DNA of 64,000 bases from an uncultured Alphaproteobacteria bacterium (GCA_949297415.1 CASFSV010000016.1:171-64170), one strand, 5' to 3'; shown: positions 5,991-51,097, counted from the stretch's first letter. The notes: generated by a model from the letters alone, not told the origin. Program-made: numbers and translations.

Positions 5991-6010
5991 ATAGAATAGG
6001 TTGATTTACA

Positions 6011-9673: not shown

Positions 9674-9753
9674 TTATATACTCCCTTTTATTTGCTTCTT
9701 TTATTCTAGCAAATATTCACTATTTCGTCAATACAACGTCTAAATTATCTGTT

Positions 9754-22314: not shown

Positions 22315-22333
22315 ATAAATATCCTACACCTTA

Positions 22334-23092: not shown

Positions 23093-23103
23093 ATTTTTTT
23101 ACC

Positions 23104-23292: not shown

Positions 23293-23434
23293 GATTAACC
23301 CTCTAAATAATTTCCATCTATTTATAATTAAAACTTTTATTTTTAAAAGTCTAACGAGAAAATAAATTGCCTCGACTTATCAACAGGCTAAATCGTTTTG
23401 TTGGAATTTTAACATATCAATACTTAAAAATTTT

Positions 23435-24193: not shown

Positions 24194-24213
24194 TCTTTAT
24201 TCTTTTGCCTCAT

Positions 24214-33932: not shown

Positions 33933-33993
33933 ATCGCGCCCTCCCTAATAATCTTCATTATGTACTAATTATCTTAAACTTATTGATAATATA

Positions 33994-35187: not shown

Positions 35188-35265
35188 AATTCCCCCTCTT
35201 AAATAAATAATATTCAACGTTGTAAATTGTACTACATTTTTTTGTTTTTGTCAACAAATTTATAG

Positions 35266-37713
35266 TTAAACCCCATTGAGATATTTTGTTACGAATCCAT
35301 CTTCTCCAAATTCTTTTACAAGGCTTTCAACAAGCAATACATTTTTAATACCAGAATTGTATAATTTCAGATATGGTCCTAATCCACTCAAGTTTACATC
35401 AAGAATTACAGACTCTCCTTCCCCGTTCTCTCCGGCATCCGGACGTTTTAATAATATAGCATACGGGCAATCTCTGTAGGATTTACCACTAATGAAATCA
35501 TATTCGCTGTCCGTTAAATTCCATTTTGCATATGATTCTGGTGTTGCTTGGGTGTTGCGGAAGAATATCATTGTCTTACATTGACCTCTTACCGCATCGC
35601 CAACACCTAATGAATCTACAATGTTTGGCTGTTGAAACGCACAAAGATAGGCCTGGCGTTTTTTACGACCTTCTTGCAACCCTTTGATGAAGTTATCCCT
35701 AAACATTTCATGTTTTAACATCGGCGCCGTTTCATCAATCATAATCAGTGCAGGACTACCTGTTTCTGTACTCTCTGATTGTATTCTGTGCATAATGTAG
35801 CTAATTGATGCTGCGGCAAGTACATCATCGTCAAAAATCTCTGTAAAGTCAAATGCCACAAATCTATTTGAACTCAAATCCAAACTATCGTGCTCTGCAT
35901 TAAAGATATTTCCGTATTGGTCAGGGTTTACCCATCTATATAATTCACGGCGCATTGTTCCCGTTGGTGAAAAGCAACTTTTGTACAAATTCTTCAAAAC
36001 TCTCTCTTCTGGACGCAGATAATCAAATGCCGTCGTTACTGCTCGAGCTGCTTCTCTTTCCGATAACGCATCTTTTGCCATAGTAATCGCTTTTAACCAG
36101 TTACGTAAAAACGCTCTATTGCTCATCGTATCTCGTGAATCGAACGGATTTAATGATACATTTTTTCTATCACCGCTAAAGCCAACATATGCACCCTGAA
36201 CCATGTGAGTAAATATTTCTGCACCGCGGTGTCTATCAAAAAAGTATACTTTCAAATCACCGTGCCGCATAGCTTGACCGGCTAAAAACGTCAGCAATGT
36301 TGTTTTACCTTGTCCGGTCGGTCCTACAATACAACAGTGCGCAACCGCTGATTCCGCCGCTGATATATGAAATTGGAATCTATATGGAGAGCCACTCATT
36401 GTCCTAAATACCGTAATAGCACCTTCACCCCAGTCACTTCGTGGCAAACCTGTCGATAGTTGCTCAAATGAAACAGCTAATGAAACTATCCTTGATAAAT
36501 AGAAATACGTTCTTCCACAAGTATCATATCCCGGAAATTGATTGAAAAATGTCGCTTGTGCTATCCAATTTTCTCGTACCGGCGTTACACTGAACAAACG
36601 ACATATTCTTTGAACTTCACTTTCACCAAATTCTATTTCTTTAATCGAATCTCCTTTTAATATAAAACTCATGGAATATTCTACTAAAGACTGGTGATCC
36701 GCATCGCTTTCTTCGATTGCGGCCAAAGCTTCGCTATATTGCGCCACTACATCTGACGAAAAACTGGTTACTTCTGCCATTTTTTGTTGTTGCACCAAAA
36801 TCATTCGTGCTTTAGGCTTAAATAAGGGATGAATATGATGAAGAACCGTTAATTCGCAATCTATTGCCAATAATGATGATATCATTCCTTCATCCATATA
36901 ATCCCCTGAATTGCGTATTCCCATTGTCAGGGCAAATTTTTCTTTCCCTCCCGAAAAGAATTTTATTATACCTTCTTCTCCCGTAAAATGAATACCGTCA
37001 GAGCTCAGCATTTCTTTTAATTGGAACCCTTGCGCCCCTCTAACTTTGGGCAATGGTTTACTTATTGGATTTAAAATTCTTACAAACGGATATACCGGAC
37101 TCATTTCTGCTGAGCTCTCATCATCCTCGTACAAAACTTTTATTCCGTAATCATTCAAATTAGCCATTACCGATTGTGACGCAAAGTTCAAATCTTTTAC
37201 CGCATCTTTTCTATCTTCTATTGATAAAATAATGTAGTGGTCATTTTTATAAACACGACTTAAATTTTCTCGCCATGTGTCATCTACTATTTTAAGCCAT
37301 TTATTTCCAAAATCCGCTTTATTTTTCTCCATCGGAACGCGGTCACGTATTGTTATCACTCGGCATGTTACTTGCAAATCCGCCATATTATCGAGCCAAG
37401 ATTTTCTGGCTTCAAACATTGATAATACCGTTTCATCTCGCGCCGATGTTAAATCAACACCCTCAACTTTAAATACGCGTACATATGTGCCATTACTGCA
37501 TCTTAGCGTTGAACCATCCGATAATAAACTATCAAACGGCAAAAAATCCGCAACCCTTGATTCACTCGGTTGTGGCAATACCCATGTCCCTATCTTTGAA
37601 ACTAATGAAATTGCTATGGCTGCTGCGGATATAATACCTAAGGTTGCAACAATCGCGTCTGCGCTTTGCAAACCAGCCATAAATAACGTATAAAAATCAA
37701 AATCAAGGTTCAA
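35266..37713 (-). CDS. virB4: T4SS ATPase VirB4
   Basis: 815 aa. Walker A IVGPTGQGKTTLLTFLAGQ, Walker B ALIMIDETAPML, AFQQPNIV. Overlaps the virB3 stop by 11 nt. Confidence 0.93.
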   Translation of the reverse strand: MNLDFDFYTLFMAGLQSADAIVATLGIISAAAIAISLVSKIGTWVLPQPSESRVADFLPFDSLLSDGSTLRCSNGTYVRVFKVEGVDLTSARDETVLSMFEARKSWLDNMADLQVTCRVITIRDRVPMEKNKADFGNKWLKIVDDTWRENLSRVYKNDHYIILSIEDRKDAVKDLNFASQSVMANLNDYGIKVLYEDDESSAEMSPVYPFVRILNPISKPLPKVRGAQGFQLKEMLSSDGIHFTGEEGIIKFFSGGKEKFALTMGIRNSGDYMDEGMISSLLAIDCELTVLHHIHPLFKPKARMILVQQQKMAEVTSFSSDVVAQYSEALAAIEESDADHQSLVEYSMSFILKGDSIKEIEFGESEVQRICRLFSVTPVRENWIAQATFFNQFPGYDTCGRTYFYLSRIVSLAVSFEQLSTGLPRSDWGEGAITVFRTMSGSPYRFQFHISAAESAVAHCCIVGPTGQGKTTLLTFLAGQAMRHGDLKVYFFDRHRGAEIFTHMVQGAYVGFSGDRKNVSLNPFDSRDTMSNRAFLRNWLKAITMAKDALSEREAARAVTTAFDYLRPEERVLKNLYKSCFSPTGTMRRELYRWVNPDQYGNIFNAEHDSLDLSSNRFVAFDFTEIFDDDVLAAASISYIMHRIQSESTETGSPALIMIDETAPMLKHEMFRDNFIKGLQEGRKKRQAYLCAFQQPNIVDSLGVGDAVRGQCKTMIFFRNTQATPESYAKWNLTDSEYDFISGKSYRDCPYAILLKRPDAGENGEGESVILDVNLSGLGPYLKLYNSGIKNVLLVESLVKEFGEDGFVTKYLNGV

Positions 37714-37993
37714 ATTTATGCCCTTTCACTTTATATAAATTTTGCGGCACCATATTTGTTTGCCCAAAGGCCTGTATCATTCCTGATAAGTGAGGATCTT
37801 TTGCTCCAAGCGCAACAACGATTAAATGCCCCAACACAATACTTATAATAAACACAAGCGGGTTTACGTCGCCCATTCCGATAGCCATAAACATGAAAGG
37901 TATTTGCAAACCTGCATTCAGCGCGGTCGGCAAAACTGGTCCCCAAAATAATTTGGGCGGATTTGCTACTGCTTTTAGTATTATATCTTTCAT
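37703..37993 (-). CDS. virB3: VirB3-family small inner-membrane protein
   Basis: 96 aa. LFWGPVLPTALNAGLQIPFMFMAIGM plus a second TM NPLVFIISIVLGHLIVVAL. Lies immediately upstream of virB4. Confidence 0.8.
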   Translation of the reverse strand: MKDIILKAVANPPKLFWGPVLPTALNAGLQIPFMFMAIGMGDVNPLVFIISIVLGHLIVVALGAKDPHLSGMIQAFGQTNMVPQNLYKVKGHKFEP

Positions 37994-38071
37994 GGCTTCA
38001 TTCCTTTTTCGTCATGTTTCCATGATAAGCCTGAAAATCTTAAAAATTATTAAATTATACTATTTTTATTT

Positions 38072-38428
38072 CTAACTTCCGAGGCTACTATGCGATACCG
38101 TATTCATATATGTATCGCTAAATTCTGTTTTTAAATTTGCATGACTTCCTGTAAAATAATCAATTATCGCACCTGTCGCTGAAAGCATAAACAAACTGAT
38201 AAAAATATATCCTAAATGCTTAAAATTAATCTTTCCGCTTATAGCTAAAAAGGTAAACATTACAATACCAAAGCAAGATATTGCATAAGCAAAAACTCGT
38301 AGCTGAGATGCGAATGATACTGTTTTTTTCTTTAATGCGTCAAAGACATTCTCTGCCATCGCATCATTGCTTACCAGCAAAACTAGTGCCACACATATTA
38401 TAAAGAGAAATATATTTCTTTTTGTCAT
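38072..38428 (-). CDS. virB2: VirB2-like pilin paralog 3
   Basis: 118 aa. Signal peptide ...LLVSNDAMA and two hydrophobic helices (AYAISCFGIVMFTFLAISG; LGYIFISLFMLSATGAIIDYF). SD AGGAGAA. Lies upstream of virB3. Confidence 0.65.
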   Translation of the reverse strand: MTKRNIFLFIICVALVLLVSNDAMAENVFDALKKKTVSFASQLRVFAYAISCFGIVMFTFLAISGKINFKHLGYIFISLFMLSATGAIIDYFTGSHANLKTEFSDTYMNTVSHSSLGS

Positions 38429-38439
38429 CTCATTTTCTC

Positions 38440-38760
38440 CTATGTTCCTAAGGCTATGTCACTTGCTATATCCGATGCACCATTTGGGGCAAACATAGCT
38501 ATAAATCCCGCGCACAAGCTTATTACCACTAACCCTAATATAATTGCTGTTAGCCACTTCCAGTTTATGTTTCCGAAAAAACCGCCAATACATACCGCAA
38601 TTATACCAACAGCAGATGCCGGATAAATAATTTCTCGTAATCCTGAAAATATCTCATTTCCTGACGTTATTAAAGAGTCAAATGCTCCAGCTTGTGCAAC
38701 TGAAGGTATTAGTAAGCTCAGCATTACCAATGCGTAGAAAATTTTATTATCTCTTTGCAT
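38440..38760 (-). CDS. virB2: VirB2-like pilin paralog 2
   Basis: 106 aa. Signal peptide ...LLIPSVAQA and two hydrophobic helices (ASAVGIIAVCIGGFFG; LTAIILGLVVISLCAGFIAMF). SD GGGGAGA. Confidence 0.65.
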   Translation of the reverse strand: MQRDNKIFYALVMLSLLIPSVAQAGAFDSLITSGNEIFSGLREIIYPASAVGIIAVCIGGFFGNINWKWLTAIILGLVVISLCAGFIAMFAPNGASDIASDIALGT

Positions 38761-38786
38761 CTCAAAATCTCCCCTATACTGTTTGT

Positions 38787-38795
38787 ATTATATCA
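38787..38795 (-). promoter_or_regulatory. Candidate extended -10 promoter element (TGATATAAT on the minus strand) in front of virB2 paralog 2
   Basis: The reverse complement of 38781-38800 reads atttgTGaTATAATacaaac. It lies 27 nt upstream of the ATG at 38760 and downstream of the terminator at 38975-38993. The -35 is weak (tagcta). Confidence 0.4.
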
Positions 38796-38871
38796 CAAAT
38801 CTATACAAATAGCTAGTAAAAAATTTGCTTCTTACATTATTCCATCATTCTGTTTTTACTTATTTTATTTA

Positions 38872-38893
38872 CTTGTAACAAAAACTTCACACT
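38872..38893. promoter_or_regulatory. Conserved 22-mer cttgtaacaaaaacttcacact, copy 1 (upstream of virB2 paralog 2)
   Basis: Identical to 39487-39508, with similar T-rich flanks on both sides. Lies about 110 nt upstream of the start codon. Confidence 0.45.
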
Positions 38894-38967
38894 GTGTCCG
38901 TTTTTCTATTACATCTTTCTATATATTAAAGCTTCCATTTTATTTTTATTAAATCAGATCTTAGCAA

Positions 38968-39000
38968 CAAAAAAGGAGCGCATCACGCGCTCCTTTTTCT
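38968..39000 (-). terminator. Rho-independent terminator after virB2 paralog 1 (bidirectional shape)
   Basis: GC-rich stem GGAGCGC (38975-38981) / GCGCTCC (38987-38993), a 5-nt loop, and A/T runs on both sides (aaaaaGGAGCGCatcacGCGCTCCttttt). It stands out in AT-rich sequence, 22 nt after the stop at 39015. Confidence 0.75.
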
Positions 39001-39014
39001 TTATTTTTTGGTTA

Positions 39015-39368
39015 TTATAGACCGTTACCAGATTCACTAAATGTATCACCTGTTTGGCCTGAAGTAATATTACCACCTGTAGCGTAGTTAACAATCGCAC
39101 CAGCTGCTGCCAAAATTGCCAAACCAACAGCCAAGCCTGCAAACCAAGTCCATTTTACTTTTCCAAAAATAGCTTGGAACGCAATACCAATTAAACCAAA
39201 TGCACCAACTACGAAAATAATGGTCTTAATATGAACAAAAAGCTGTAATGCTTTTTTCATACCTGTTTCCATAACGCTTTCATTTGCTGCATATGATGCA
39301 TTTGCAAGTAATATTGTAAACACAAGAGCTAAAGAGCAGAGTGTAAACACTTTCTTTAAGTTTTTCAT
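39015..39368 (-). CDS. virB2: VirB2-like pilin paralog 1, apparently monocistronic (ORF-track start 39395; 39368 preferred)
   Basis: MKNLKKVFTLCSLALVFTILLANASYA signal peptide and two hydrophobic helices (IFVVGAFGLIGIAFQAIFG; FAGLAVGLAILAAAGAIVNY). SD AGGAGAA lies 5 nt before the ATG at 39368. TATAAT (39387-39392, minus) lies just upstream, and a terminator lies downstream. Confidence 0.7.
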   Translation of the reverse strand: MKNLKKVFTLCSLALVFTILLANASYAANESVMETGMKKALQLFVHIKTIIFVVGAFGLIGIAFQAIFGKVKWTWFAGLAVGLAILAAAGAIVNYATGGNITSGQTGDTFSESGNGL

Positions 39369-39486
39369 ATCAGTTCTCCTAAATTCATTATACATTGTTT
39401 ATATTACAGTAAATTTAAAAAAATTTCAAGCCTTTTGACTCGTCTCACTTTCATCTTAACATATTGTATTTGTTTGTTTTTTTATT

Positions 39487-39661: not shown

Positions 39662-41059
39662 ATGTGGGAATTTAGAAATTTTGTTTTAGGTTTTAGCATA
39701 TCTCTGGTTAGCGTATCACTAACCAGTCATTTGTTGGCTTCTTCTTCTCACACAACGAAACCATACGTTCGCCATGCGGATATATCTATTGAACTTTATA
39801 AAAATAATGATCCAATTGCTCGGAAAATTATTTTTTCAAATATTCAGAAAAATTCTTTATCCATATCTCAAGCTCAAGATAAAAGTGATGAATCTTCTTT
39901 AACAATCAACACCCAAGAAACAACATTAGCAGATTTATCGCTTTCTCAAGATAATATTCAGAATTCAGATATTATCTATTCCCCTCAAGACATTAATGGC
40001 ACTGAAGATGATGAAATTTTGAATATTAACATTGACAGCATCATTCCTATAGATATTGAAAGCCCCCACAATACCTCATATAATGCCGAAGTCACTTACG
40101 GAGATGACAACGACAACAAAATAGCTTTACTCCCTACCGACATATCTTCCGATACTTTAGATTCATCATTTAATTCCCCTTGGGTTGTTGCTCAAGGCAG
40201 CAAGCATATAAAAAACAAAAAATTACTTGAAAAGTACGCATCTGATACATCCGACAAACTTGTTTCAGATAATTTTACACAACTAAACAACAACGACGAT
40301 GCCTTATCTTATAAAGTCGCAGAGAGGATTAAGCAGAGCATTATTTTTCCTATCCCAGACGAAATATTGAATGATGAAAATTTAACACCAACTTTTATCT
40401 CTCCGCAGAAAAAAGCATCAGACAAAAAAAATCTCTCTGCAGATAAAAAGGAAACACTTTCTATCTCCCCCACTAAAGAGGAGCAGCCTTTAAAAATCAT
40501 TTCCAAGACAACTCCTTCGGTTCAGCCTACTACACAAGAACAAAAAACATCAACATCCAAAGGTATTCTGGACAATATATCGTCATGGTTTTCAACATCT
40601 CATGAAGAAAAGCAAAAACGCCCCAAGCCAACAAAGAACAAAGCCACCCCCCTGTACAGCAGTCAGAACAACAATGATACACCCAAGGATGCATCATCGT
40701 TATCTTCAAATGATGCCTTAGTTAGCTTTTACGAAACGATTCAAGAAACTCAAAAAGAGCAAGCTTCAAACAAAATTATTCCATCTGAGCTTAAGCTTTC
40801 TTTTCAACCTGATAGAGCCGAGATATCAGGGCAGACGCTTCGTTGGTTAAAAGCCTTTTCTGAAAAGACAAAAGAAAAGAATCAGTATCTTCAAATCAGA
40901 TTAGATGCAACTGCGCCTATTGAGCTACAAAGAAAACGCCTAAATCTTCTCTACACCATCTTTATGAATAACGGTGTTGATTTCAAAAAAGTTGATACTG
41001 TGTTTTCATTAACAGAGCCAAATACTTTTATAATAAGAACAATAAAAATACAGGAGTAA
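39662..41059 (+). CDS. Secreted S/T/N/D-rich protein of unknown function, first gene of the pilus operon
   Basis: N-terminal hydrophobic segment FVLGFSISLVSVSLTSHLLASSS. A long low-complexity region, then a C-terminal folded-looking about 110 aa (LKLSFQPDRAEISGQTLRWLKAFSEKTKEKNQYLQIRLDATAPIELQRKRLNLLYTIFMNNGVDFKKVDTVF). Confidence 0.5.
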   Translation: MWEFRNFVLGFSISLVSVSLTSHLLASSSHTTKPYVRHADISIELYKNNDPIARKIIFSNIQKNSLSISQAQDKSDESSLTINTQETTLADLSLSQDNIQNSDIIYSPQDINGTEDDEILNINIDSIIPIDIESPHNTSYNAEVTYGDDNDNKIALLPTDISSDTLDSSFNSPWVVAQGSKHIKNKKLLEKYASDTSDKLVSDNFTQLNNNDDALSYKVAERIKQSIIFPIPDEILNDENLTPTFISPQKKASDKKNLSADKKETLSISPTKEEQPLKIISKTTPSVQPTTQEQKTSTSKGILDNISSWFSTSHEEKQKRPKPTKNKATPLYSSQNNNDTPKDASSLSSNDALVSFYETIQETQKEQASNKIIPSELKLSFQPDRAEISGQTLRWLKAFSEKTKEKNQYLQIRLDATAPIELQRKRLNLLYTIFMNNGVDFKKVDTVFSLTEPNTFIIRTIKIQE

Positions 41060-41161
41060 CGTTTTTCAACAGAATTAATCAACAAAACGTTTTATAAATA
41101 AAGTGTTACGCTTGATTAATTAAATTTTAATATTTATTGTAATGCTAGGTTGGATTTAACA

Positions 41162-42259
41162 ATGAGTCAGAACATGAAAAAAAGTTTTTTATTACCGTTT
41201 TGTTTATTATGTGCTTGCGGATTTTCTGCTTGTAGCAGTTTTTCTGGTAAAGACCAAACTGATACTTTTATTCCCGAAAATGATGCACCCATTATTGATG
41301 CGACAGTAAATCCTAATAGTCGTTGCGGAGTAAATGGAATTAGCTGTAACGATACAGCGCTAGTTAATTATACTAAAACCGAAGCTGATTATAGAGCTTA
41401 CGGCGAAAGGACAAAGAGAGATCAGCTTTATACACAATCTGCTGCAGGTAATAATCTTACAGCGACAATTCAGCCTGACATTGAAAGCGACATTGTAACA
41501 CAAACTGTAACCGTTAGTGATACAGTCAGAAAGAATAGTGCGCCTAAATATATTGTTGATAATGGGGTATTTAGTGAAACAGGAAAATTAGAATTGGAAA
41601 CTTCTCCGGAATCCTATGAGAATCCTGTTACTTATAATCTGGAAGAACAGGCTCCTAAAGAGACTAAAAAGATAGTGAATACAACTGAAAAACCTTCTCA
41701 AATTAAACCGCAAAATAAAATTGGGCATGCTGATAATGTAAAATTACCTGAAATTAAAGAAATTAAACAGATAAAGAAGAGTGTTGTAGAAGATGGTTCA
41801 TCTTATGAGATTGTTTGCGAAGAGAATTGTGATGATATTATAGACGATGATGTTATTACCTCTGAGTTTACAGAAGAATCTTTTGATATAGCAGATTATG
41901 TTGATGATGAGAATATTGAATTTACAGAAGTTGGAAATTCAAATCCAATGATTACAGATATTGCTATTAATGAAATACAAGTCGGTGACGATACTATACT
42001 GACTTGGGAAGCTGAGGAAGGTGAGAATTTACGTGAGTTGTTAACAAAATGGAGTGCCATGTCTGGTTGGAAACTTTTGTGGAATACCAATAGAAATTAT
42101 ATCTTAAATGCAGGTGTTATGTTTAAAGGGAAATTTGCAGATGTCAGCTCTGCTTTAATTAGAGCTTTTGCAAGAGCTAGACCTGCGCCTATTGCCACTT
42201 ATTATAAAGGGAATCGTGTTATAGTCGTTGAAACAATGGAGAATGAGAATGCATACTAA
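41162..42259 (+). CDS. PilL-like lipoprotein with TcpQ/PilL-type C-terminal domain (ORF-track TTG start 41150)
   Basis: Lipobox region FLLPFCLLCACGFSACSS. C-terminal ILTWEAEEGENLRELLTKWSAMSGWKLLWNTNRNYILNAGVMFKGKFADVSSALIRAF...YYKGNRVIVVE resembles the PilL/TcpQ domain family (from memory). Lies directly upstream of the secretin. Confidence 0.55.
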   Translation: MSQNMKKSFLLPFCLLCACGFSACSSFSGKDQTDTFIPENDAPIIDATVNPNSRCGVNGISCNDTALVNYTKTEADYRAYGERTKRDQLYTQSAAGNNLTATIQPDIESDIVTQTVTVSDTVRKNSAPKYIVDNGVFSETGKLELETSPESYENPVTYNLEEQAPKETKKIVNTTEKPSQIKPQNKIGHADNVKLPEIKEIKQIKKSVVEDGSSYEIVCEENCDDIIDDDVITSEFTEESFDIADYVDDENIEFTEVGNSNPMITDIAINEIQVGDDTILTWEAEEGENLRELLTKWSAMSGWKLLWNTNRNYILNAGVMFKGKFADVSSALIRAFARARPAPIATYYKGNRVIVVETMENENAY

Positions 42260-43853
42260 TAAAAATTATTTACTTGGATTTGCGGCATTTTTGCTTTTAG
42301 GTGTTGCCTCTTGTTCGTTGCCTACCGATTATGATGCTGCTTTAGAAAGAGATGTTGACGCTACGATTAAACATAAAGAAGATGCTAAGGCGCCTCAAAA
42401 CGTTGCTGATACGGATGTTATCAGAATTAAAGATGATATTTGGCTTGGTGATACGAGCGAAATAGAATATGAAGGTGATAAGCCTCTTCCTCATTATCTG
42501 GAAACATCTGACGGTGTTACTTTGGTAAGTAATAGGCCGATTACACTTTATGAAATTGGTAATATGGTTAGTCAAATAACATCCATAAAAGTTCGTTTTG
42601 CACCACAATTAGAAGCTCCAGCTAAAGCTGCTGCTGATAAAAATGCACCAACAATTTCTAAAGTTGGCTCTAAATGGTCAGATACATCTCGTATGCTTGT
42701 TTCTTATAAAGGATCTTTGAGCGGTTTGTTAGATGAAGTATGCTCCCATTTTGGTGTGTGGTGGAAGTATGAAAATGGGGAAATCTATATTTATAAGTAT
42801 ACAACTAAAACCTTTACTTTGTATACGTTACCCACTAAGCCAACCATGACATCTAGCGTTAGCAGTTCTTCCGGAGGCGGAACCATTACAAGTGGTGTAT
42901 CTAGTATTGATTTGTGGGCAAATATTGTTACGGCTGTGAAATCAATGCTTGGAACCGGTTCAAGTTTGGTTACGGATCCAATGAATGGTACTTTAACTAT
43001 TACAGCAACACCTACGGAAATTAAAAAAGTTGCTAAATTTGTTAATGAACAAAATATAAGATTATCACGTCAAGTGGCTATTAGCGTTAAGGTTCTTCAG
43101 GTTGAAGTTGATGAATCTCGGGGCTTTGGTTTTGATTTGAATGCAGCATTTAAAGATAGAACAGCTTCTGGAGGAAATATAACATTAGGGGATAACAACT
43201 TTGGCCCAACTGGACTTATAGATGGAAATAGCGGTATGTCCATGAAGATTTTAAGTGGAGATGTTACTGTTAATGCTGCTATTCAAGCTTTATCTACACA
43301 AGGTGTTACAACTTTGGTTACAAGCGGTACAGTTACCACTATGAATAATAAGCCAGCTCCTATTCAAGTTGTTAAGACACAGAACTATATTTCTGAATAC
43401 ACTAAGACAAATAATGGTACTGTTGGGGGTGAAGCTAGTTACGATGTTACGGTCGAAACAGAAGAAATTGAAACTGGTTTTACATTGGATGTTTTGCCAA
43501 GAATTATGGATCACGGTCGTTTGATGATGTTGTTCAGCCTGAATTTGTCTGACTTGCTTGATTTGGAAAATGTAAACTTAGATAGTTCAGAAGAATCTGG
43601 TTATATCCAAAATCCAATTATTGAAGAAAGGGGCTTCTCTCAAGAAGTTGCTCTAAAGTCTGGTGAAACTTTGGTTCTTTCAGGTTATGAACGTGTTGAA
43701 ACGTCTAGCGATAAAGCAGGTTTGGGGGCTGTTAATAACAATATTCTTGGTGGTCATCAAAGAGTAGAAAAGACGCGTAGTATTGTTGTTATTTTGTTAA
43801 CACCTGTTGTGTTAGAATCACCTTTGATGCCAGAATCTCGTATGAAATTTTAG
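42249..43853 (+). CDS. Type IVb pilus secretin, lipoprotein (R64 PilN / BfpB-like) (ORF-track TTG start 42228)
   Basis: Lipobox LLGVASCS. Secretin C-domain LSTQGVTTLVTSGTVTTMNNKPAPIQVVKTQNYISEY...GFTLDVLPRIMDHGRLMMLFSLNLSDL...VALKSGETLVLSGYERVETSSDKAGLG. GGAGA lies 6 nt before the ATG at 42249. Confidence 0.85.
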   Translation: MHTNKNYLLGFAAFLLLGVASCSLPTDYDAALERDVDATIKHKEDAKAPQNVADTDVIRIKDDIWLGDTSEIEYEGDKPLPHYLETSDGVTLVSNRPITLYEIGNMVSQITSIKVRFAPQLEAPAKAAADKNAPTISKVGSKWSDTSRMLVSYKGSLSGLLDEVCSHFGVWWKYENGEIYIYKYTTKTFTLYTLPTKPTMTSSVSSSSGGGTITSGVSSIDLWANIVTAVKSMLGTGSSLVTDPMNGTLTITATPTEIKKVAKFVNEQNIRLSRQVAISVKVLQVEVDESRGFGFDLNAAFKDRTASGGNITLGDNNFGPTGLIDGNSGMSMKILSGDVTVNAAIQALSTQGVTTLVTSGTVTTMNNKPAPIQVVKTQNYISEYTKTNNGTVGGEASYDVTVETEEIETGFTLDVLPRIMDHGRLMMLFSLNLSDLLDLENVNLDSSEESGYIQNPIIEERGFSQEVALKSGETLVLSGYERVETSSDKAGLGAVNNNILGGHQRVEKTRSIVVILLTPVVLESPLMPESRMKF

Positions 43854-43856
43854 GAG

Positions 43857-45140
43857 TTGCCAGTGTCTGAAGATGATGACAAAGATTTAGAGCCTTTAGA
43901 TGACTCTTCTCGTGAGAACAGTAAAGAATGGGCTTCCAGTTTTACTGTTGATGGAGTGCAATACGCAGCGAGTATCTTTTGGGAAAGTTTGCAAAATATT
44001 GATGCCCCATTTTTAGATGCGAAAGAGGCTGCCGAAAATGTTCTTGTTGGAGCCGATTTGTTTTGTGTAAAACACGGTAAATCGCCTCAGCTTGGGCTCG
44101 CTGTATCATCTCAAGGCTTCAAAAAAGGAATGAATGTTGCAGCTGTTACAGCTGTGACTGCAATGAGTGATGCATCTTCTCTTTTAGCCGTATTCAAAGT
44201 TGATTCCGGATATTGGTATTTATGTGTCAGAAATGATGTTATTCTATCTGATGGAGATGTGCTCTTTGTTAAAGAGGAAGATGCAAGAGAGCAATTTATG
44301 TCTATGCTTTCTGTTCCTGATTGGTCTAAAAAAATTGCTCCTAAGGAATGGGGAATTGATGATACTGAGCAAAAAGATATTTCGGAAATATTTGCTCAAG
44401 GTTTGGATGTTCAATTAGAGAAAATTAATGCACTTCGTGGTGCTGAGTTAGCTATCGTTGTCGTTTTATCCATTGCAGCCGGTGCTTGGCTGGTTATGTT
44501 TATTGCCAATACCTTTTTTGCAACAAAAACTCAAGAAAATAAAGTGGTTACACGCCGAGCAAAGAAGAAAGTTGTTAAAGAAGTTGAAAAAATTGTACCA
44601 GCACCGTGGGAATCGATGGTGGAAACAAATTGGTTGTTAGATAATTGTAGGACAACTATGCAATCTCTAGTGGCAATCACTACTCCTGGTTGGAAAAATG
44701 GTGGTGTTACCTGTTCTGCATCTGGTGTTGTTACATCTTGGAAAAGAGAATTTGGACGTCTGTCTTGGTTAGAAATGGCTTTGTCTTATTCGGGAATGTC
44801 TTTCACTAATAAATCTATTGATGATAAGGGAACTTCTGTTACTATATCAATACCATTTCAATCTGTAAAGAAAGTTAATTCAATTCCGACTAAGACGATG
44901 TCTGAATTGCGTAATATGATTAATGATTTATTTCAGACGCTTAATATGTCCATTTCTTTATCAAACGGGAAAGTTAAAGCGGGCAGTAAAACTTATGAAG
45001 CCTTAAATTTTAAAATCAATTCAAAATATGATCCTGATATTTGGAAACCTATGTTAACAAAATTTTCAGGACTTAAGATTAATAATATACGTTATAATGG
45101 TGGCGTATGGAATTATGAGGGGACAATTTATGTTCAGTAG
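43857..45140 (+). CDS. PilO-like bitopic pilus assembly protein (call mainly positional; alternative GTG start 43863)
   Basis: 427 aa with a central TM LAIVVVLSIAAGAWLVMFIANTFF. Lies between the secretin and the PilP-like gene, as in R64-type pil operons. Confidence 0.45.
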   Translation: MPVSEDDDKDLEPLDDSSRENSKEWASSFTVDGVQYAASIFWESLQNIDAPFLDAKEAAENVLVGADLFCVKHGKSPQLGLAVSSQGFKKGMNVAAVTAVTAMSDASSLLAVFKVDSGYWYLCVRNDVILSDGDVLFVKEEDAREQFMSMLSVPDWSKKIAPKEWGIDDTEQKDISEIFAQGLDVQLEKINALRGAELAIVVVLSIAAGAWLVMFIANTFFATKTQENKVVTRRAKKKVVKEVEKIVPAPWESMVETNWLLDNCRTTMQSLVAITTPGWKNGGVTCSASGVVTSWKREFGRLSWLEMALSYSGMSFTNKSIDDKGTSVTISIPFQSVKKVNSIPTKTMSELRNMINDLFQTLNMSISLSNGKVKAGSKTYEALNFKINSKYDPDIWKPMLTKFSGLKINNIRYNGGVWNYEGTIYVQ

Positions 45141-46635
45141 AAACAAATTTTATGGATTACTTATATCGGCATTTGTTATCAATATTGCTAATGCTCAGGC
45201 TGTTAGTGTCGCAGATGCTTCTGCTAATGTAGCTAATTTATCTTTAAATGTTGCTTCGCAATCAGCTGATGCTGTAGCAGCAAAAGAAACTAAAGCTTTG
45301 GTTTCCCCCTCGCAAGCTAAAGTTGCTCCGGTAGAAACCGCTGCTTCTGCGCCAAATCAAGCTTCTGCTAATTTACAAGCACAGCCGGTAGCTCCTGTCG
45401 TAAGCACGGTTCAAAACACTAATATTTCATCTCAGCCCCCTTTAGTTTCACCACAAGCTCAACCAGTGGTACAAAATTCTAGTCAGGTATCTCAGGCTCC
45501 TCAGGAAGATTTTGACTTTGATTTGAAGATGAAGTCATTAAATGCTCCATCTCAACCTCAGAATAATCAACCTAGTAACATCAATAACGCTTCATCATCG
45601 GCCATTAATGATGTAGATTTACCTAAAGATATTCAATATAAGGCAAATCCAGTTGAAGCTCTTGGTAATAGTATCTTGTCTCAAATGGATAGCGATTTAT
45701 TTTCTCAGATGTCTGAGATTGAAAAAAGTACAACGTTGTTAACTCTTGAATTGCGTAGAGAAAAGATACGTAATGAAATTGAGGCTCAAAAGGCAATCCG
45801 ACAGAAAAATATTGATGAACAGGCTAGATTAAAAGAAGAACAGAAATTACAAGATTTAGAAAGAAAAAAGAAAATTGAAGCTCAGGTTTTGCAAGAGAAG
45901 CAGGCTCTTCTTGATAAAGAGAAACTTTTTGAGGTTCTTAAACAGCGGAAACTTCTTAACGCTTATATGAATCAAATGCTTGTTAATCAGCAGGAATGGT
46001 TAAAAGAAAAAGAAAATTTGTACGCTCAAATCTCAGCTCTTGAAGGTGAAAAAAAAGAACTTATTGAGCTATTTAAAGAGCGTATAAATAAAGTTTTAGA
46101 AGCATCTGCTAAAAATATACAAGTTGCAGAAGCTGCTCGTGCTAATTTTGAGCGAATTGTAAAGAATTTGAAAGCTAGAAATGAACAACTTCGCAAAAGA
46201 GTTGAAGCAGATGCTCAAATTATTAAAAATGCAAAAAATAATTTGTATTTAAAATCACAATCTATTGAAGAATTAAAAGATAAAAATGCTTCATCTGCGG
46301 CAGCTTTGGCGGCAAATGCTACTGCGTCGGCTCAAATTGATGATACAGAAGATGTTGAGGAGGAAACAGTACAAGAGAAGTTAAGTGCTCAATACGCCAT
46401 TCTCGGTATTACAGGAAGAGCCGGTAATATGTCTGTTGACGTTATTGATATTAATGGACAGCCTTTATCATTAAAAATTGGCTCTCCTTTGCCTACAGGA
46501 CATATTCTTAGCGAAATTGGATCTGATTATGCTAAATTTAGTAGAGATGGTAGTGATGATTATCTTTATATTGGTAGATCTATAGATGGCTATGTGCCTA
46601 CTCTTGGTCTAAGTGATGACAAAAAGAAAAAATAA
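45130..46635 (+). CDS. PilP-like protein expanded with Q/P/S-rich and coiled-coil regions (ORF-track start 45097)
   Basis: Signal peptide MFSRNKFYGLLISAFVINIANAQA. Long coiled coil (EKIRNEIEAQKAIRQKNIDEQARLKEEQKLQDLERKKKIEAQ...). C-terminal about 90 aa YAILGITGRAGNMSVDVIDINGQPLSLKIGSPLPTGHILSEIGSDYAKFSRDG resembles the PilP/GspC-HR beta domain. SD GAGGGGA. Confidence 0.45.
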   Translation: MFSRNKFYGLLISAFVINIANAQAVSVADASANVANLSLNVASQSADAVAAKETKALVSPSQAKVAPVETAASAPNQASANLQAQPVAPVVSTVQNTNISSQPPLVSPQAQPVVQNSSQVSQAPQEDFDFDLKMKSLNAPSQPQNNQPSNINNASSSAINDVDLPKDIQYKANPVEALGNSILSQMDSDLFSQMSEIEKSTTLLTLELRREKIRNEIEAQKAIRQKNIDEQARLKEEQKLQDLERKKKIEAQVLQEKQALLDKEKLFEVLKQRKLLNAYMNQMLVNQQEWLKEKENLYAQISALEGEKKELIELFKERINKVLEASAKNIQVAEAARANFERIVKNLKARNEQLRKRVEADAQIIKNAKNNLYLKSQSIEELKDKNASSAAALAANATASAQIDDTEDVEEETVQEKLSAQYAILGITGRAGNMSVDVIDINGQPLSLKIGSPLPTGHILSEIGSDYAKFSRDGSDDYLYIGRSIDGYVPTLGLSDDKKKK

Positions 46636-46672
46636 TCGTATTATTTTTAATAGTTGTTTACGGGTGTAAAGT

Positions 46673-48337
46673 ATGCCAGAAGAGTTAAAAAAGGAAAATA
46701 CAGTTAACGGAAAAACTAATCCGGAATCTAATTTTGAGGAAGAGGATTCTGGAGCGGAGCAGGCTAAAAAAGTTAATTTGTTTGATCAGCTTTTTGCCAA
46801 TGGGAATAAGTTGTTGACTGTAAATGGATCTGATTTCGCTATTTCAAACGAAACAAGACGTTTGTTGGCCTTGTTCTCTGATGGTACTTATCTTGTTTCT
46901 AAAGATAATAGATTTGATGGTGCTGTTTATAACTTTGAAGCAAATGTTAAAAGAAGAAAAATTCCTATCAAAGCACCTCGTTATGTCACTCTTAATGAAA
47001 TATCTGCTATTTATGCTTATGCTGAACGTGGTGCTGGTACTGTTGATGTATCTGCTGAAGAAGCTGAAGATATGCAGATGCAAATCGACTTTATTAACAT
47101 TATTCAAAGAGCTTCTCAGAAAAAAGTGTCTGACGTTCATATTATCGTAGGTTCATCTTCTACAGTACTTTTCCGTGAAAACGGTATTATGGTTAAGCAA
47201 AATGAGTACGGAGGTGAATGGGGTGAAGCTTTTGTTCGTTCTGTATTTGCTTCTGCAGATATTTCTGACTCAAACTATTCACAAAATGAATTCCAAGGTG
47301 CGCAAAAATTAGGTTCAACGCCTTTGCGTGGCTCTAAGGGTAAATTGATGCTTCCTCACAATGTATTAGCTATTCGTCTTCAATTTAACCCTATTGCGTT
47401 TGGTTCTCAGTATTTGGTTATGCGTCTTTTGTATGCTGACGATAATCCTGAAGGTAGCTCCGATTTACGTTCTCTTGGTCTTGGTAAGTATGAAGAAGAT
47501 CTTTTTTATAAAATGAGAAGTATGGCAGTGGGCTTAAATGTTGTTGCTGGTCCGACCGGTTCTGGAAAGTCTACAACATTACAACGCAATATGATTAAAC
47601 TCTTACAAGAAAAAAATTATCAGATTAACTTGTTGACTGTGGAAGATCCTCCTGAGTATCCTATTCCAGGTGCTCGTCAAATGCCGGTTACTAACGCTAA
47701 TACAGAAGAAGAAAAAAATGAGCAATTTACAAAAGCTCTATCTGCAGCTCTTCGTTCCGACCCAGATGTTATTCTTGTTGGTGAAACGCGTTCTTTGTCA
47801 ACAGCGGAATTAACGTTTAAAGGTGCTTTGTCTGGTCACGGCGTATGGACTACTCTACACGCTAACTCTGCTCCAGCTATCGTTACTCGTTTGCGCGATA
47901 TGGGTATTCAACCTTATTTGCTTAATGACCCTGAATTAGTTAAAGGATTGGTTTCTCAACGTCTGTTTAGAAAGTTGTGCCCTAATTGTCGACAATCTAT
48001 TAAAACTAAAGAGGGTTCTCCTGAATTTGAACGTTTACGCAATGCGTTAGGGGACTATGGTATCGAAAATGTTTATGTGAGCGGTCCCGGTTGTAAAGCG
48101 TGTGGCTATAAAGGATTTAAAGGCAGAATGGCTGTTGATGAGATTATTTTACCTGACTCACGTTTCTTGAGACTTATGATTGATAATGAAACAGCCAAAG
48201 CTATTGACTACTGGGTGAGTGAATTAAATGGTCGTCCATTAAAAGATGCTGCTATTGAGCGTATGATTAAAGGACAAATTGATATGGACGAAGTTGAGCG
48301 TTGGTGTGGGTTAATCGACCAACGTCCTGTATACTAG
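46673..48337 (+). CDS. GspE/PilB-family pilus assembly ATPase (R64 PilQ-like)
   Basis: Walker A VVAGPTGSGKSTTLQ, Asp box LLTVEDPPEYPIPGARQ, Walker B LRSDPDVILVGETR, His box SGHGVWTTLHANSA, tetracysteine CPNC...CKAC. Confidence 0.9.
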   Translation: MPEELKKENTVNGKTNPESNFEEEDSGAEQAKKVNLFDQLFANGNKLLTVNGSDFAISNETRRLLALFSDGTYLVSKDNRFDGAVYNFEANVKRRKIPIKAPRYVTLNEISAIYAYAERGAGTVDVSAEEAEDMQMQIDFINIIQRASQKKVSDVHIIVGSSSTVLFRENGIMVKQNEYGGEWGEAFVRSVFASADISDSNYSQNEFQGAQKLGSTPLRGSKGKLMLPHNVLAIRLQFNPIAFGSQYLVMRLLYADDNPEGSSDLRSLGLGKYEEDLFYKMRSMAVGLNVVAGPTGSGKSTTLQRNMIKLLQEKNYQINLLTVEDPPEYPIPGARQMPVTNANTEEEKNEQFTKALSAALRSDPDVILVGETRSLSTAELTFKGALSGHGVWTTLHANSAPAIVTRLRDMGIQPYLLNDPELVKGLVSQRLFRKLCPNCRQSIKTKEGSPEFERLRNALGDYGIENVYVSGPGCKACGYKGFKGRMAVDEIILPDSRFLRLMIDNETAKAIDYWVSELNGRPLKDAAIERMIKGQIDMDEVERWCGLIDQRPVY

Positions 48338-48347
48338 GAGAATTAAT

Positions 48348-49469
48348 ATGGCCAAAAAGGAAGAAACAAATACAGGTGCCTTTAATAAAGCAATGAAATC
48401 TTTGGGCTCGTTGGAGGTTTCTTTTGCACAATTCCGAATTGGTATGGCTGGTAAAGCTCGTCTTAAAGTATACAAAAAGTTGGCTTCTTTACTTAGAAAT
48501 AGATTTTCTTTAATGAATGCTTTAGACATTATGTATGACAGTATTACTGATAATGGTAAACATCCTAGTGAGCCGATGGCTATCGCTATTGCTTCTTGGG
48601 GTAAAGCACTTCAAAATGGTTATGCTTTTTCTGATGCCTTAAAAGGTTGGGCTCCTAGTCGTGAAAGATTGATGCTTTCCGTTGGTGATATGTCTGACTT
48701 GGAAAGTGCTCTCATGAACTTAATTCGCGTGGCTGAAGGTACTGAAAAAATGTTAAAGCCTATTATCGGGGCGATTTCTTATCCTTCTTTCTTGCTCTTA
48801 ATGTCTGTTTTGGTTATTTATGCTATTGGTGCATATATGGTGCCGCCGATGATGGATGCTGCTCCAAATGCGCGTTGGTCCGGTACAGCTAAAGATTTGG
48901 TTGCTGTTTCATTGTGGATTCAGAAGAACTGGTTGCTTGCATTTGCCTTTTTTCCTGCTATCTTTCTTCTTATTTATGCCACCATTGGTATTTGGACCGG
49001 CCCAACTAGAAAAGCTATAGATGATTGTCCTCCATGGTCTTTATATAAAATGTTTATGGGTATTACTTGGCTACTTTCTTTATCCGCATTGATTAAAGGT
49101 GGTGTGCCTATTTCTGTAGCTTTGACCTCTTTGAGAAAAGACTCCAACCGTTATCTTCAAGAGCGTATTGATAGAGCTATGGATTATATTAAAAATGGTG
49201 ATAACTTAGGACAGGCTCTTTCTAAAACGAAATTGAATTTTCCTGATAAAGATATTGTTGCAGATTTACGTATTTATGCTGAACTTGATAACTTTGAAGA
49301 AGCTCTTGACCGTTTGGCAAATGACTGGCTTGATGAATCTGCTGAAGCTGTTGAGCAGAAAGCATCAATTTTGAATATGGTCGCCATGTTTGCTATTTCC
49401 GGTATTATTGCTTGGGCGGTATTCGGCGTATTTGAAATGCAAGATCAAATTACCAGTGCAATGGGTTAG
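48348..49469 (+). CDS. GspF/PilC-family inner-membrane platform protein (R64 PilR-like)
   Basis: 373 aa. Two cytoplasmic helical repeats, each followed by TM segments (ISYPSFLLLMSVLVIYAIGAYMV; LLAFAFFPAIFLLIYATIGIW; MVAMFAISGIIAWAVFGVF). Lies immediately after the ATPase. SD AGGAGA. Confidence 0.8.
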   Translation: MAKKEETNTGAFNKAMKSLGSLEVSFAQFRIGMAGKARLKVYKKLASLLRNRFSLMNALDIMYDSITDNGKHPSEPMAIAIASWGKALQNGYAFSDALKGWAPSRERLMLSVGDMSDLESALMNLIRVAEGTEKMLKPIIGAISYPSFLLLMSVLVIYAIGAYMVPPMMDAAPNARWSGTAKDLVAVSLWIQKNWLLAFAFFPAIFLLIYATIGIWTGPTRKAIDDCPPWSLYKMFMGITWLLSLSALIKGGVPISVALTSLRKDSNRYLQERIDRAMDYIKNGDNLGQALSKTKLNFPDKDIVADLRIYAELDNFEEALDRLANDWLDESAEAVEQKASILNMVAMFAISGIIAWAVFGVFEMQDQITSAMG

Positions 49470-49473
49470 TAGC

Positions 49474-50136
49474 ATGCTTGATAAAATTAAGCTTATTTAT
49501 CTTAAACTTCTGAATTATGTTATACGTTATTGGAATGAAATTTGTCGTGATTATATTCCGAAATTGCAGGTGTACATTAAAAAGAGTATAGATTTCTTAC
49601 TTACTAATAGAACCTCCATTATTAAAGTAGCTATTCCCTGTTTGGTAATTGCTTTCTTCTTTTACTCTTGTTCATCCTCTCGGCGCGTGATTACTCGTAA
49701 TATAGCTGAGATTTTTGAAATTGCAGAAAATGTCAGAGCTTATTACAACAGTAAGCCTGATTATTGGAGATTATCAACGGAAGTTTTAATTGATAATAAT
49801 GTTATTCCTACTCAATACCTTCAGGATAAAAATATTGTTTTAGAAGATGATATTCATATTCTTTTGGGTGAAGGATATTTGGCTGCTCCGGTGTCTCCAA
49901 GAATGCTTACTTTTGATATAGTTATCCCTAACTTAAATAAGGCCAAATGCATGGCCTATGCCGAAGCAGAGCTATCTGAACAACAACTCTTGGTTCTTGA
50001 TAAATTGACTATTTATAATGATGCAGGAAACGCTGTTTATACATGGGGGGGAGAAAATGCTCTTCCAGTTGTAAGATACTCAAGCAAAAACTTTTGTATT
50101 AATGGTGTTAATACACTTATTTGGTCTTTGAAATAG
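49474..50136 (+). CDS. Bitopic protein in the pilin (PilS) position with a pilin-like ectodomain but no prepilin cleavage motif (ORF-track start 49390 overlaps pilR-like)
   Basis: MLDKIK... has about 50 aa of basic cytoplasmic-looking N-terminus and a TM IIKVAIPCLVIAFFFYSC. Then NIAEIFEIAENVRAYYNSKPDYWRLSTEVLIDNNVIPTQY, reminiscent of the pilin alpha1C/alpha-beta loop. No G/(F,M,W)TLxE motif. Confidence 0.5.
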   Translation: MLDKIKLIYLKLLNYVIRYWNEICRDYIPKLQVYIKKSIDFLLTNRTSIIKVAIPCLVIAFFFYSCSSSRRVITRNIAEIFEIAENVRAYYNSKPDYWRLSTEVLIDNNVIPTQYLQDKNIVLEDDIHILLGEGYLAAPVSPRMLTFDIVIPNLNKAKCMAYAEAELSEQQLLVLDKLTIYNDAGNAVYTWGGENALPVVRYSSKNFCINGVNTLIWSLK

Positions 50137-50149
50137 TTTGTTTTATTTT

Positions 50150-51097
50150 CTAGAATATCGGCAAAGATTGAGCCATTCTTGCGGCTTGCATTTCAATAGA
50201 TGTAGCTAAATTTAACTTACCACTACGAATAATTGAGCGAACAGAACAGCCTTTATTCAAATCAGGATTAGCAAATAATGTTTCTATTCGTGGTTTTCTA
50301 TGTGTTTCTGTCCCAACCAAATCTTGTTTAATAACGGAAAGTATTCCTCTTGATAATATATCAAAAGCAGAACTTTCACTCATACTAAAGCTTGCATATT
50401 TTACTAACGAACTTAAAGCATCCGTAATTGAGCTTGCATGGATAGTTGTTAGTACTAAATGTCCTGATATTGATGCTCGAAGGCATTCACATGCTGCATC
50501 TGGTGTTCTTATCTCTCCAATTAAAATGTAACGAGGTTTTGAACGCAGTGCTGATTTAAGCGGTTCTCGCCAATTATCATTCTGCACTTCTGTTTGCTTA
50601 CAAAAACCTATTGATCCATTAAATGATTGATATTCCCCCTCTAGTGGCATTTCTGCAGGATCTTCAATCGTATAGGCAAATCCTCCTTCTAAATTCAGAT
50701 ATTCAGCCAACAGACTTGATATAGATGTTGTTTTACCTGATCCGGTAGCTCCTCCCCATATTATCAAACCACTTTGTGCGGATAGAGATAACATATACTG
50801 AACGAATCTGTGATCAAAGCCTAAATTATGAATACTCGGAATGGTAAGAGGCATTCTTCTTAAGCAATACAATTCGCCATTTACGCTTAAGACATTTTCA
50901 ACTCGGAAAAATGTTCCTTTATAGTTCATTGAATAGGAACTTGTCTGGTGCATAATTAAGAAAAGTTGTTCGCAAAATTCCTCTTTATCACTGGGCTCTA
51001 CTCTTTTCAAACTATTGGCATATTTTTCATCTGATATATAAAAGTCTTTATTTGAATTTATATATAAATCAGAAAAACTGTATTGTAAAAGTTCCAT
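50150..51097 (-). CDS. PilT/DotB-like hexameric secretion ATPase (short GspE-superfamily member)
   Basis: Walker A IWGGATGSGKTTSISSLL, YTIEDPAEMPL, Walker B LRSKPRYILIGEIRTPDAA, His box SGHLVLTTIHASS. 315 aa. SD GGAGAAG. Starts 16 nt after the atpF stop on the same strand. Confidence 0.8.
   Translation of the reverse strand: MELLQYSFSDLYINSNKDFYISDEKYANSLKRVEPSDKEEFCEQLFLIMHQTSSYSMNYKGTFFRVENVLSVNGELYCLRRMPLTIPSIHNLGFDHRFVQYMLSLSAQSGLIIWGGATGSGKTTSISSLLAEYLNLEGGFAYTIEDPAEMPLEGEYQSFNGSIGFCKQTEVQNDNWREPLKSALRSKPRYILIGEIRTPDAACECLRASISGHLVLTTIHASSITDALSSLVKYASFSMSESSAFDILSRGILSVIKQDLVGTETHRKPRIETLFANPDLNKGCSVRSIIRSGKLNLATSIEMQAARMAQSLPIF

Follow-up and report, generated by a model that had tools for sequence, protein, structure and literature searches.

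A 64 kb stretch of DNA from an uncultured Alphaproteobacteria bacterium (GCA_949297415.1 CASFSV010000016.1:171-64170; the whole stretch is referred to as the window) was found to carry, at positions 39662–51097, a pil operon which on the basis of its predicted products is a type IVb pilus biogenesis operon of the bundle-forming pilus (BFP) and R64 class. It lies back to back with a VirB-type type IV secretion system (T4SS). The operon probably encodes a retractile pilus machine that belongs to the core chromosome, is split, with the pilin and prepilin peptidase genes unlinked to it, and aids contact by the T4SS.

An original prediction, made by reading the sequence, had described an R64-type pilus module without a canonical pilin, peptidase or shufflon and had raised the possibility of a repurposed device. 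Its gene order is real, and all nine open reading frames (ORFs) were present at the positions listed below. Relatives were defined as loci in metagenome-assembled genomes (MAGs) matched by the extension ATPase. This search gave 57 loci in species-representative MAGs labelled Alphaproteobacteria, in all of which the whole pil module was syntenic. The MAGs came from the gut of humans, mice, ruminants, horses and chickens; examples are 'Acetobacter sp. 46_36', UMGS1453, the RUG/RGIG series and Ca. Scatocola.

Gene content and class of the pil operon

39662–41059, + strand: ORF1, with a signal peptide, a variable low-complexity region, a conserved motif at about residues 221–240 and a C-terminal OmpA/Pal/MotB-like domain
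41150–42259, + strand: lipoprotein in the PilL/BfpG position, with a C-terminal TcpQ domain and the lipobox ...GFSAC/SS
42228–43853, + strand: lipoprotein secretin of the PilN/BfpB type (PF00263, TIGR02520; lipobox LLGVASC/S)
43857–45140, + strand: PilO, a bitopic inner-membrane protein in the type 4b PilO2/BfpC position (PF06864)
45097–46635, + strand: ORF5, in the PilP position, with a signal peptide, a Q/P/S-rich linker, a long conserved coiled coil and a conserved C-terminal beta domain
46673–48337, + strand: type IVb extension ATPase of the BfpD/R64 PilQ class (T2SSE, tetracysteine motif)
48348–49469, + strand: platform protein of the GspF/PilR/BfpE type (two PF00482 T2SSF domains, 94 bits)
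49474–50136, + strand (ORF frame 49390–50136): PilS-like protein with a type IVb pilin fold and a degenerate class III signal
50150–51097, − strand: PilT/BfpF-like (retraction-type) hexameric ATPase (TIGR01420), convergent with the operon

The content and order of these genes were those of a type IVb pilus and not of a type II secretion system (T2SS), as profile and structure searches agreed with the original prediction in indicating. The type IVb features comprised a PilN/BfpB-type secretin preceded by a TcpQ protein, PilO, and a BfpD-type ATPase with a GspF platform; a cleavable prepilin (Gly−1, Glu+5) was absent from the locus and was found adjacent to it or unlinked in relatives. Three of the profile searches proposed with the original prediction gave the expected family. 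TcpQ (PF10671) was matched at the C-terminus of the 41150–42259 product (residues 285–361, E = 7e-17, 61.7 bits against a gathering score of 27), the lipobox FSAC of which was read off the translation. The secretin exceeded the gathering score of PF00263 (62.8 bits), and its top NCBIfam model was by far TIGR02520 (PilN family; 262.5 bits, though just under the equivalog cutoff of 287.65), followed by MshL at 119. PAP_PilO (PF06864) was found in the 43857–45140 product above its gathering score (51.2 against 26.7 bits), together with a central transmembrane helix, and the annotated Azonexus PilO2 was matched by phmmer with E = 1e-13. The best profiles did not point to a T2SS: the GspD model gave just 48 bits and the GspE model 219 bits, both far below their cutoffs, and genes for GspC, GspL, GspM and pseudopilins were absent from the window. 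Homologues of PilV, a lytic transglycosylase and PilM were not detected by phmmer.

The extension ATPase (T2SSE, 210 bits), in the translation of which the CxxC...CxxC motif is visible, matched BfpD (8dze) over its full length with 318 bits, compared with 170 bits for GspE. In tblastn searches of plasmids the best matches were BfpD, IncI-type PilQ and genes on Bosea and Methylorubrum megaplasmids, at 34–36% identity; matches to Desulfoluna ATPases (30–33% identity) were set aside as generic GspE-family relatives. The second ATPase (315 residues) belongs to the PilT family (TIGR01420, 106.7 bits), and its best full-length matches were the second ATPases of the BFP-like Escherichia coli plasmid, Bosea and Azonexus clusters, which occupy the BfpF position. 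In many relatives its gene is on the same strand as the operon, directly after the pilins. By homology this ATPase would retract the pilus.

The first and fifth ORFs are less conventional. ORF1 had no match in Pfam or NCBIfam, and its family is confined to the clade of the window, where it is always unnamed. A conservation profile from 50 orthologues showed the motif at about residues 221–240 and the C-terminal ~95 residues to be conserved. The latter were modelled by AlphaFold2 (AF2) with a predicted local distance difference test score (pLDDT) above 90 as a beta-alpha-beta-alpha-beta-beta domain, for which Foldseek returned the peptidoglycan-binding domains of OprF (5u1h), Pal, OmpA and MotB with a probability of 1.0. 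This protein had been described as secreted and S/T-rich; the signal peptide and low-complexity linkers stand, while the C-terminal fold sets it apart from a mere secreted protein. From the modelled fold, ORF1 may be the peptidoglycan anchor of the pilus machine. A DotD/TraH-like identity was rejected, BLASTP being negative. For ORF5 no family match was obtained in Pfam or NCBIfam, TIGR03021 included, and BLASTP comparisons with PilP, BfpU and the Bosea protein were negative. A profile of 62 orthologues gave a weak hhalign match to annotated PilP (probability 59%, E = 9e-5, 117 columns) that spanned the coiled coil and the C-terminal beta domain. The earlier label 'PilP-like' fits position and architecture and was not matched by the dedicated family model; together with the weak profile match, these features tentatively point to a PilP-type protein.

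Pilin, prepilin peptidase and the PilS-like protein

As had been predicted, the locus itself is devoid of a canonical pilin, a peptidase and a shufflon: no class III prepilin (G/xxxxE), no A24 peptidase and no shufflon-like repeats were found in the 64 kb window. For relatives, a bundlin-like E. coli pilin was used as the probe for prepilins, followed by a genome scan with the pilins found. A canonical prepilin that starts G/RSMVEMLGVLAI… is encoded directly downstream of the PilS-like gene in 30 or more of the more distant relatives. Such prepilins have the form …EQxG/RSMVEMLGVLAIIGVLSVGGIAGYSKAM…, and the PilT-like gene frequently comes next after them, on that strand. The processing motif GRSM.EMLGVLAIIGVL was invariant in the prepilins adjoining the PilS-like gene (at least 30 relatives), and the first 17 residues were invariant in the ten canonical prepilins compared. 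Since the processing motif is invariant, these prepilins are likely to be processed and assembled.

Within the subclade of the window the pilin is unlinked. A canonical PilS/bundlin-type pilin was found on other contigs in 20 of 29 MAGs (carriers include CALXPU, CALXTN, CASFTO, CASDOS, CASFQO and URXV), the orthologues being 54–78% identical. In BRZ_CV__bin18, the PilQ of which is 96% identical to that of the window, the orphan pilin gene lies between a MIF-like gene and der and its product is matched by Pfam PilS (44.9 bits) and Bundlin (39.3 bits). A peptidase of the A24 family with the aspartate motifs EIDKR and GGGDIKL was found near a pilin paralogue, beside groESL; members of this family occur widely among 'MAG: Alphaproteobacteria' records, under the name prepilin peptidase. 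Unlinked orthologues of this peptidase were present in 24 of the 29 subclade MAGs, the nearest (CALXPU, CALXTN, CASFTO and CASDOS) included. From these relatives we infer that the organism of the window also has an unlinked canonical pilin and peptidase that serve the pil machine.

These results bear on the reading offered originally, namely that the locus, having no cleavable pilin or peptidase, is a repurposed secretion or adhesion device, pilus-less or with a pseudopilus, in which the PilS-like protein is the sole pilin-like part. It accounts for the window as it stands, without a G/xxxxE prepilin or an A24 peptidase, for the absence of an A24 peptidase from the 10 kb flanks of the 57 related modules and for a PilS-like protein that is universal at the pilin position and belongs to a family (117 clusters) mostly without G−1 and E+5. 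The canonical prepilins that adjoin the module in many relatives, and that occur unlinked together with the peptidase in the closest MAGs, are contrary to it, as is the invariant processing motif, which implies processing and assembly. No alternative machine for these pilins was seen either: 3.57 Mb of clade sequence (about 150 pilin and 80 peptidase neighbourhoods) contained no second T2SS or type IV pilus ATPase, platform or secretin. A standard pilin and peptidase elsewhere, belonging to this system, is essentially what the relatives have; the step from an absent pilin and peptidase to a repurposed device is not supported, and such a device is highly improbable. The split layout is a warning that annotation of the locus by itself would mislabel such systems as pilin-less.

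Several further observations concern these unlinked genes. The peptidases of the clade are short (233–237 residues), with the Peptidase_A24 domain alone in the precomputed Pfam list and no recognizable N-terminal Cys-rich or methyltransferase region. In contig L203 the gene (9258–9968, − strand) adjoins groES-groEL and in L218 it adjoins a response regulator. GC content was of no help in assigning peptidase candidates to subclades. In some gut alphaproteobacterial MAGs canonical pilin genes are strongly multiplied. At least 577 stretches were confirmed overall; a single MAG had seven or more, and L066 carries a tandem of three. An example of a multi-pilin MAG is CAKQLP (contigs L078, L085, L101, L192, L203, L207 and L209). 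This multiplication suggests variation by choice of paralogue rather than by a shufflon. Contigs with such pilin or peptidase genes (for example L104, L122, L125, L179 and L269) are also filed under Bacteroidaceae, [Ruminococcus] gnavus, Eubacteriales and Lactobacillaceae bins; these off-taxon names probably result from contigs that were wrongly binned or labelled in the public databases.

The protein in the pilin position of the window has a different character. Its homologues start at the methionine encoded at 49474, which gives a protein of 220 residues. Bundlin (PF05307) was matched above its gathering score (27.8 against 22.3 bits), and the best sequence match of its profile in the PDB was bundlin. 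The AF2 model (pLDDT 81.8) consists of two N-terminal helices, a long helix (46–92) and then a beta sheet, and the top two Foldseek matches in the PDB were the type IVb pilins CofA (3s0t) and Salmonella Typhi PilS (3fhu). It has Ser at position −1, no Gly−1 and no Glu+5, and the version in the window carries a cytoplasmic N-terminal extension of about 46 residues. A full-library hidden Markov model search gave 117 clusters at 50% identity, most of which have a short basic N-terminus and a transmembrane helix without G−1/E+5, while canonical pilins make up the end of the list.

Profile–profile alignment with the canonical pilins of the clade (hhalign, probability 93.9%, 151 columns) showed homology that begins at the 'YS' of helix 1 and extends to the C-terminus, with the invariant 'YSC' aligned to 'GYSK' and both disulfide cysteines aligned. 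Because of this match and of the aligned YS and Cys residues, the PilS-like ORF is taken to be a pilin paralogue with a decayed class III signal. The earlier designation as an atypical ORF in the pilin position was right as to position and can now be made specific, the protein being a paralogue of the canonical pilin of the clade that has lost the class III signal. It is most likely to be an uncleaved or poorly cleaved derivative of a minor pilin. Its site of action is probably the platform, where it would prime assembly or form a membrane-anchored base, and it would not be the fibre. The family of 117 signal-less clusters offers a natural test of the role of an unprocessable pilin-fold protein. 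Two other assignments were considered. The invariant 'YSC' after the transmembrane helix fits the PROSITE lipobox, yet a lipoprotein was rejected as a general explanation: the Cys is missing in P0014 and P0019, the helix of the AF2 model is continuous through the site and 'YS' aligns with 'GYSK'. Bosea hyp199 was rejected as a homologue.

Conservation and the neighbouring secretion system

Even for the nearest MAG (L042) dS, the synonymous divergence, was about 1, so that the relatives represent different species. Within the subclade the extension ATPase is 86–98% identical. The ratio of nonsynonymous to synonymous divergence (dN/dS) was 0.01–0.03 for the secretin, ATPases and platform (0.01–0.02 for the secretin and about 0.01 for the PilT-like gene), below the 0.03–0.07 of atpF and atpB; it was 0.12 for ORF1 and 0.17–0.28 for the PilS-like gene. 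Given the synteny and the low dN/dS, the operon is functional and not degraded in relatives; the module is intact in more than 57 species-level MAGs and under strong purifying selection. The alphaproteobacteria of this lineage, none of which is represented in culture, are frequent in the guts of humans and ruminants. Their core genome includes a type IVb pilus that is more tightly constrained than the subunits of ATP synthase and is maintained beside a chromosomal T4SS. This points to a central role, in the lineage, of a contact-dependent lifestyle with adhesion to host cells, protists or other bacteria.

The neighbouring system is encoded as follows.

8693–39395, − strand: P-type (VirB-like) T4SS operon, divergent from the pil operon, identified by Pfam and NCBIfam matches

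It comprises three VirB2 proteins, an ORF in the VirB3 position, VirB4, two VirB8 proteins, VirB9-SPOR, a giant beta-flower protein, an extended VirB10 and VirB11. The VirB models were the best matches, yet scored below their curated cutoffs, and the proteins are very divergent from plasmid VirB proteins. VirB6 was not recognized in the 64 kb. In the 267 bp intergenic region candidate divergent promoters matched no better than shuffled sequences.

The back-to-back arrangement, part of the original prediction, is conserved: VirB2(-VirB3-VirB4) is divergent beside ORF1 in 36 of the 40 species in which 2.3 kb or more of sequence precedes that gene. In one relative (L142, 9387–16432) VirB2...VirB4 genes lie downstream of the pil module on the same strand, and in another (L112, 2697–8498) a canonical pilin gene directly follows virB10-virB11; as both retain it in an altered order, the linkage between pil and T4SS genes has been kept through rearrangement. 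The original premise, according to which VirB-type systems are not accompanied by R64-type pili, was wrong. The IncI2 plasmid TP114 combines a T4SS of mating-pair formation type T (MPF_T) with a type IVb pilus that stabilizes mating pairs (PMC10654706), and on an Azonexus plasmid VirB8/9/10/DotD genes are contiguous with TcpQ-PilN-PilO2-PilP. By analogy, and because the operon has been kept beside a chromosomal VirB-type T4SS through rearrangements, the pilus is most likely to be an attachment and pull-in device for contact-dependent action of the T4SS.

Under the preferred reading the operon would supply an anchor (ORF1), a channel (the TcpQ lipoprotein and PilN secretin), alignment proteins (PilO and the PilP-like protein) and a motor (the BfpD-like ATPase, the GspF platform and the PilT/BfpF-like ATPase), plus one degenerate pilin paralogue. 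The fibre subunit would be the canonical PilS/bundlin-type prepilin, unlinked in the subclade of the window and directly downstream of the operon in others. This prepilin would be processed by the A24 peptidase and polymerized by the BfpD-like ATPase and the platform. The fibre would exit via the PilN secretin, which the TcpQ-domain lipoprotein would stabilize and ORF1 would link to peptidoglycan, and would be retracted by the PilT/BfpF-like ATPase, while the signal-less PilS-like protein would remain at the inner membrane as a primer or base. From the conserved linkage, the pilus may serve to bring target cells to the T4SS, in analogy to the stabilization of mating pairs by IncI thin pili.

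The pilus could instead be a conventional type IVb pilus for colonization, adhesion or twitching that is independent of the T4SS, their back-to-back placement being inherited synteny without function. BFP, the toxin-coregulated pilus (TCP) and colonization factor antigen III (CFA/III) work without any T4SS. Four of the 40 species have no neighbouring T4SS, and in L067–L069 the module sits among housekeeping genes. Against this, the linkage persists down to about 69% PilQ identity, where dS is long saturated, and survives the rearrangements in L142 and L112; type IVb pili are also known helpers of T4SS-mediated transfer, as in TP114 (PMC10654706). We regard an independent pilus as rather unlikely.

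Some points weigh against a split pilus machine that aids the T4SS. The pilin and peptidase of the window's organism are drawn from relatives, its own sequence amounting to 64 kb, and their assignment comes from Pfam type, adjacency elsewhere and the lack of a rival machine in a partial sample, not whole genomes. MAG bins may hold foreign contigs; this explanation is unlikely because pilin and peptidase identities track phylogeny over many independent MAGs. Neither a PilV-like adhesin nor further minor pilins were recognized. The pilus fibre is predicted here from genes and the cooperation with the T4SS from linkage, which the four species mentioned above do not show. A bolder and more doubtful proposal, held tentatively, is that the type IVb pilus and the divergent rvh-like T4SS form one co-inherited apparatus to attach to and inject a host or microbe, with the signal-less pilin-fold protein as a new membrane-anchored platform part (primer, base or stopper).

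The T4SS operon has unusual features of its own. Its three VirB2 and two VirB8 paralogues recall the duplications of the Rickettsiales rvh system, and VirB9 ends in a SPOR domain. The 14081–20362 gene (− strand) encodes a protein of 2093 residues built from some 22 beta-flower repeats, for which PF21785 scored 457 bits; PF21784, DUF3659 and RHS repeats were matched as well. The same repeats fill the first ~1100 of the 1451 residues of VirB10 (9754–14109, − strand), before the TrbI domain. Such extensions of a T4SS core component are unusual and presumably surface-exposed. In the region 20359–39395 (− strand) ORFs of 407, 731, 232, 458 and 1824 residues had no family match.

Genomic setting and known systems

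The pil and T4SS block is flanked by yidC/engB on one side and atpF'FEB on the other, close to dnaA, which confirms its chromosomal location. The first flank contains dnaA, dnaN, recF, gpsA, rnpA, yidD, yidC and engB, and the second contains atpF', atpF, atpE, atpB, dsbA, dciA, xerD, aroK, rph and addB. The non-mobile context was likewise supported, the flanks being core genes and no ORF of the window belonging to a relaxase or VirD4 family. Rci, PilV and a mobile-type integrase were also absent from the window, in which the sole tyrosine recombinase is the XerC/D-type gene beside dciA.

This setting also bears on the possibility that the T4SS and pil block is what remains, after domestication, of a conjugative element resembling IncI2 plasmids or integrative and conjugative elements (ICEs), with residual DNA transfer as its function, if any. 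The combination of an MPF_T-type T4SS with a type IVb pilus is typical of IncI2 plasmids (PMC10654706) and also occurs on the Azonexus plasmid. However, the 64 kb contain no relaxase, VirD4, mobile-type integrase, Rci/shufflon or PilV; the block lies between core genes near dnaA, is vertically conserved over a deep clade under strong purifying selection, and encodes T4SS components very divergent from plasmid VirB proteins. A conjugative remnant is extremely improbable.

Among known systems, the gene order of the window is shared with BFP of enteropathogenic E. coli and with BFP-like plasmid clusters of E. coli and E. albertii (for example pZ0117EC0005-1, L070). Common to both are a TcpQ protein (BfpG), a lipoprotein secretin (BfpB), PilO2 (BfpC), a small coiled-coil protein (BfpU position), an extension ATPase (BfpD, 34% identical, 318 bits), a platform (BfpE) and a PilT-like ATPase (BfpF position), and the pilins of BFP and of the clade belong to the bundlin Pfam family. 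BFP-like operons include a prepilin, an A24 peptidase (BfpP), a lytic transglycosylase (BfpH) and minor pilins (BfpI/J/K), which the locus in the window does not. The latter system differs further in its additional OmpA-like protein and signal-less pilin paralogue, in a pilin and peptidase that are unlinked to the operon, and in being chromosomal instead of plasmid-borne.

The R64/IncI thin pilus (PilL–PilV) resembles the present system in the order L-N-O-P-Q-R-S, in its PilN-family secretin and PilS-family pilins, and in its physical and presumably functional association with a T4SS, which in TP114 (IncI2) is of the MPF_T type. The window differs in having no PilM, PilT (transglycosylase), PilU, PilV, Rci or shufflon, in having a PilT-type ATPase, which R64 does not, and in its location outside a mobile element with no relaxase or type IV coupling protein nearby. 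Among type IVb pil clusters of alpha- and betaproteobacterial plasmids, those of Bosea pBSY19_1 (L065) and the Azonexus plasmid (L151) share the TcpQ protein, secretin, PilO2, PilP-position protein, ATPase (34–36% identical), platform and second ATPase, and the Azonexus cluster is contiguous with VirB8/VirB9/VirB10/DotD. They are plasmid-borne and carry PilV or PilM, and homologues of ORF1 and the PilS-like protein were not detected there. A literature search on RF32/CAG-495 gut alphaproteobacteria with pili or a T4SS gave nothing relevant. TP114 already provides a case of a type IVb pilus paired with an MPF_T T4SS (PMC10654706). New here is the form that such a pilus takes in an uncultured gut lineage, where it is core-chromosomal, split and shufflon-less and includes an OmpA-like protein and a pilin paralogue that has decayed.

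Some further features of the window may be mentioned. Rfam gave no match in it. Its start is occupied by dnaA-dnaN-recF (28–3809), followed by rnpA-yidD-yidC-engB (5619–8689); since the window opens with dnaA-dnaN-recF, the T4SS and pilus operons lie about 10–50 kb from the presumed replication origin. At the other end, beyond a PD-(D/E)XK nuclease gene (57727–60636), an open frame of more than 1160 codons (60497–64000, + strand) runs off the end of the window and is probably the truncated gene of the AddA-type partner.

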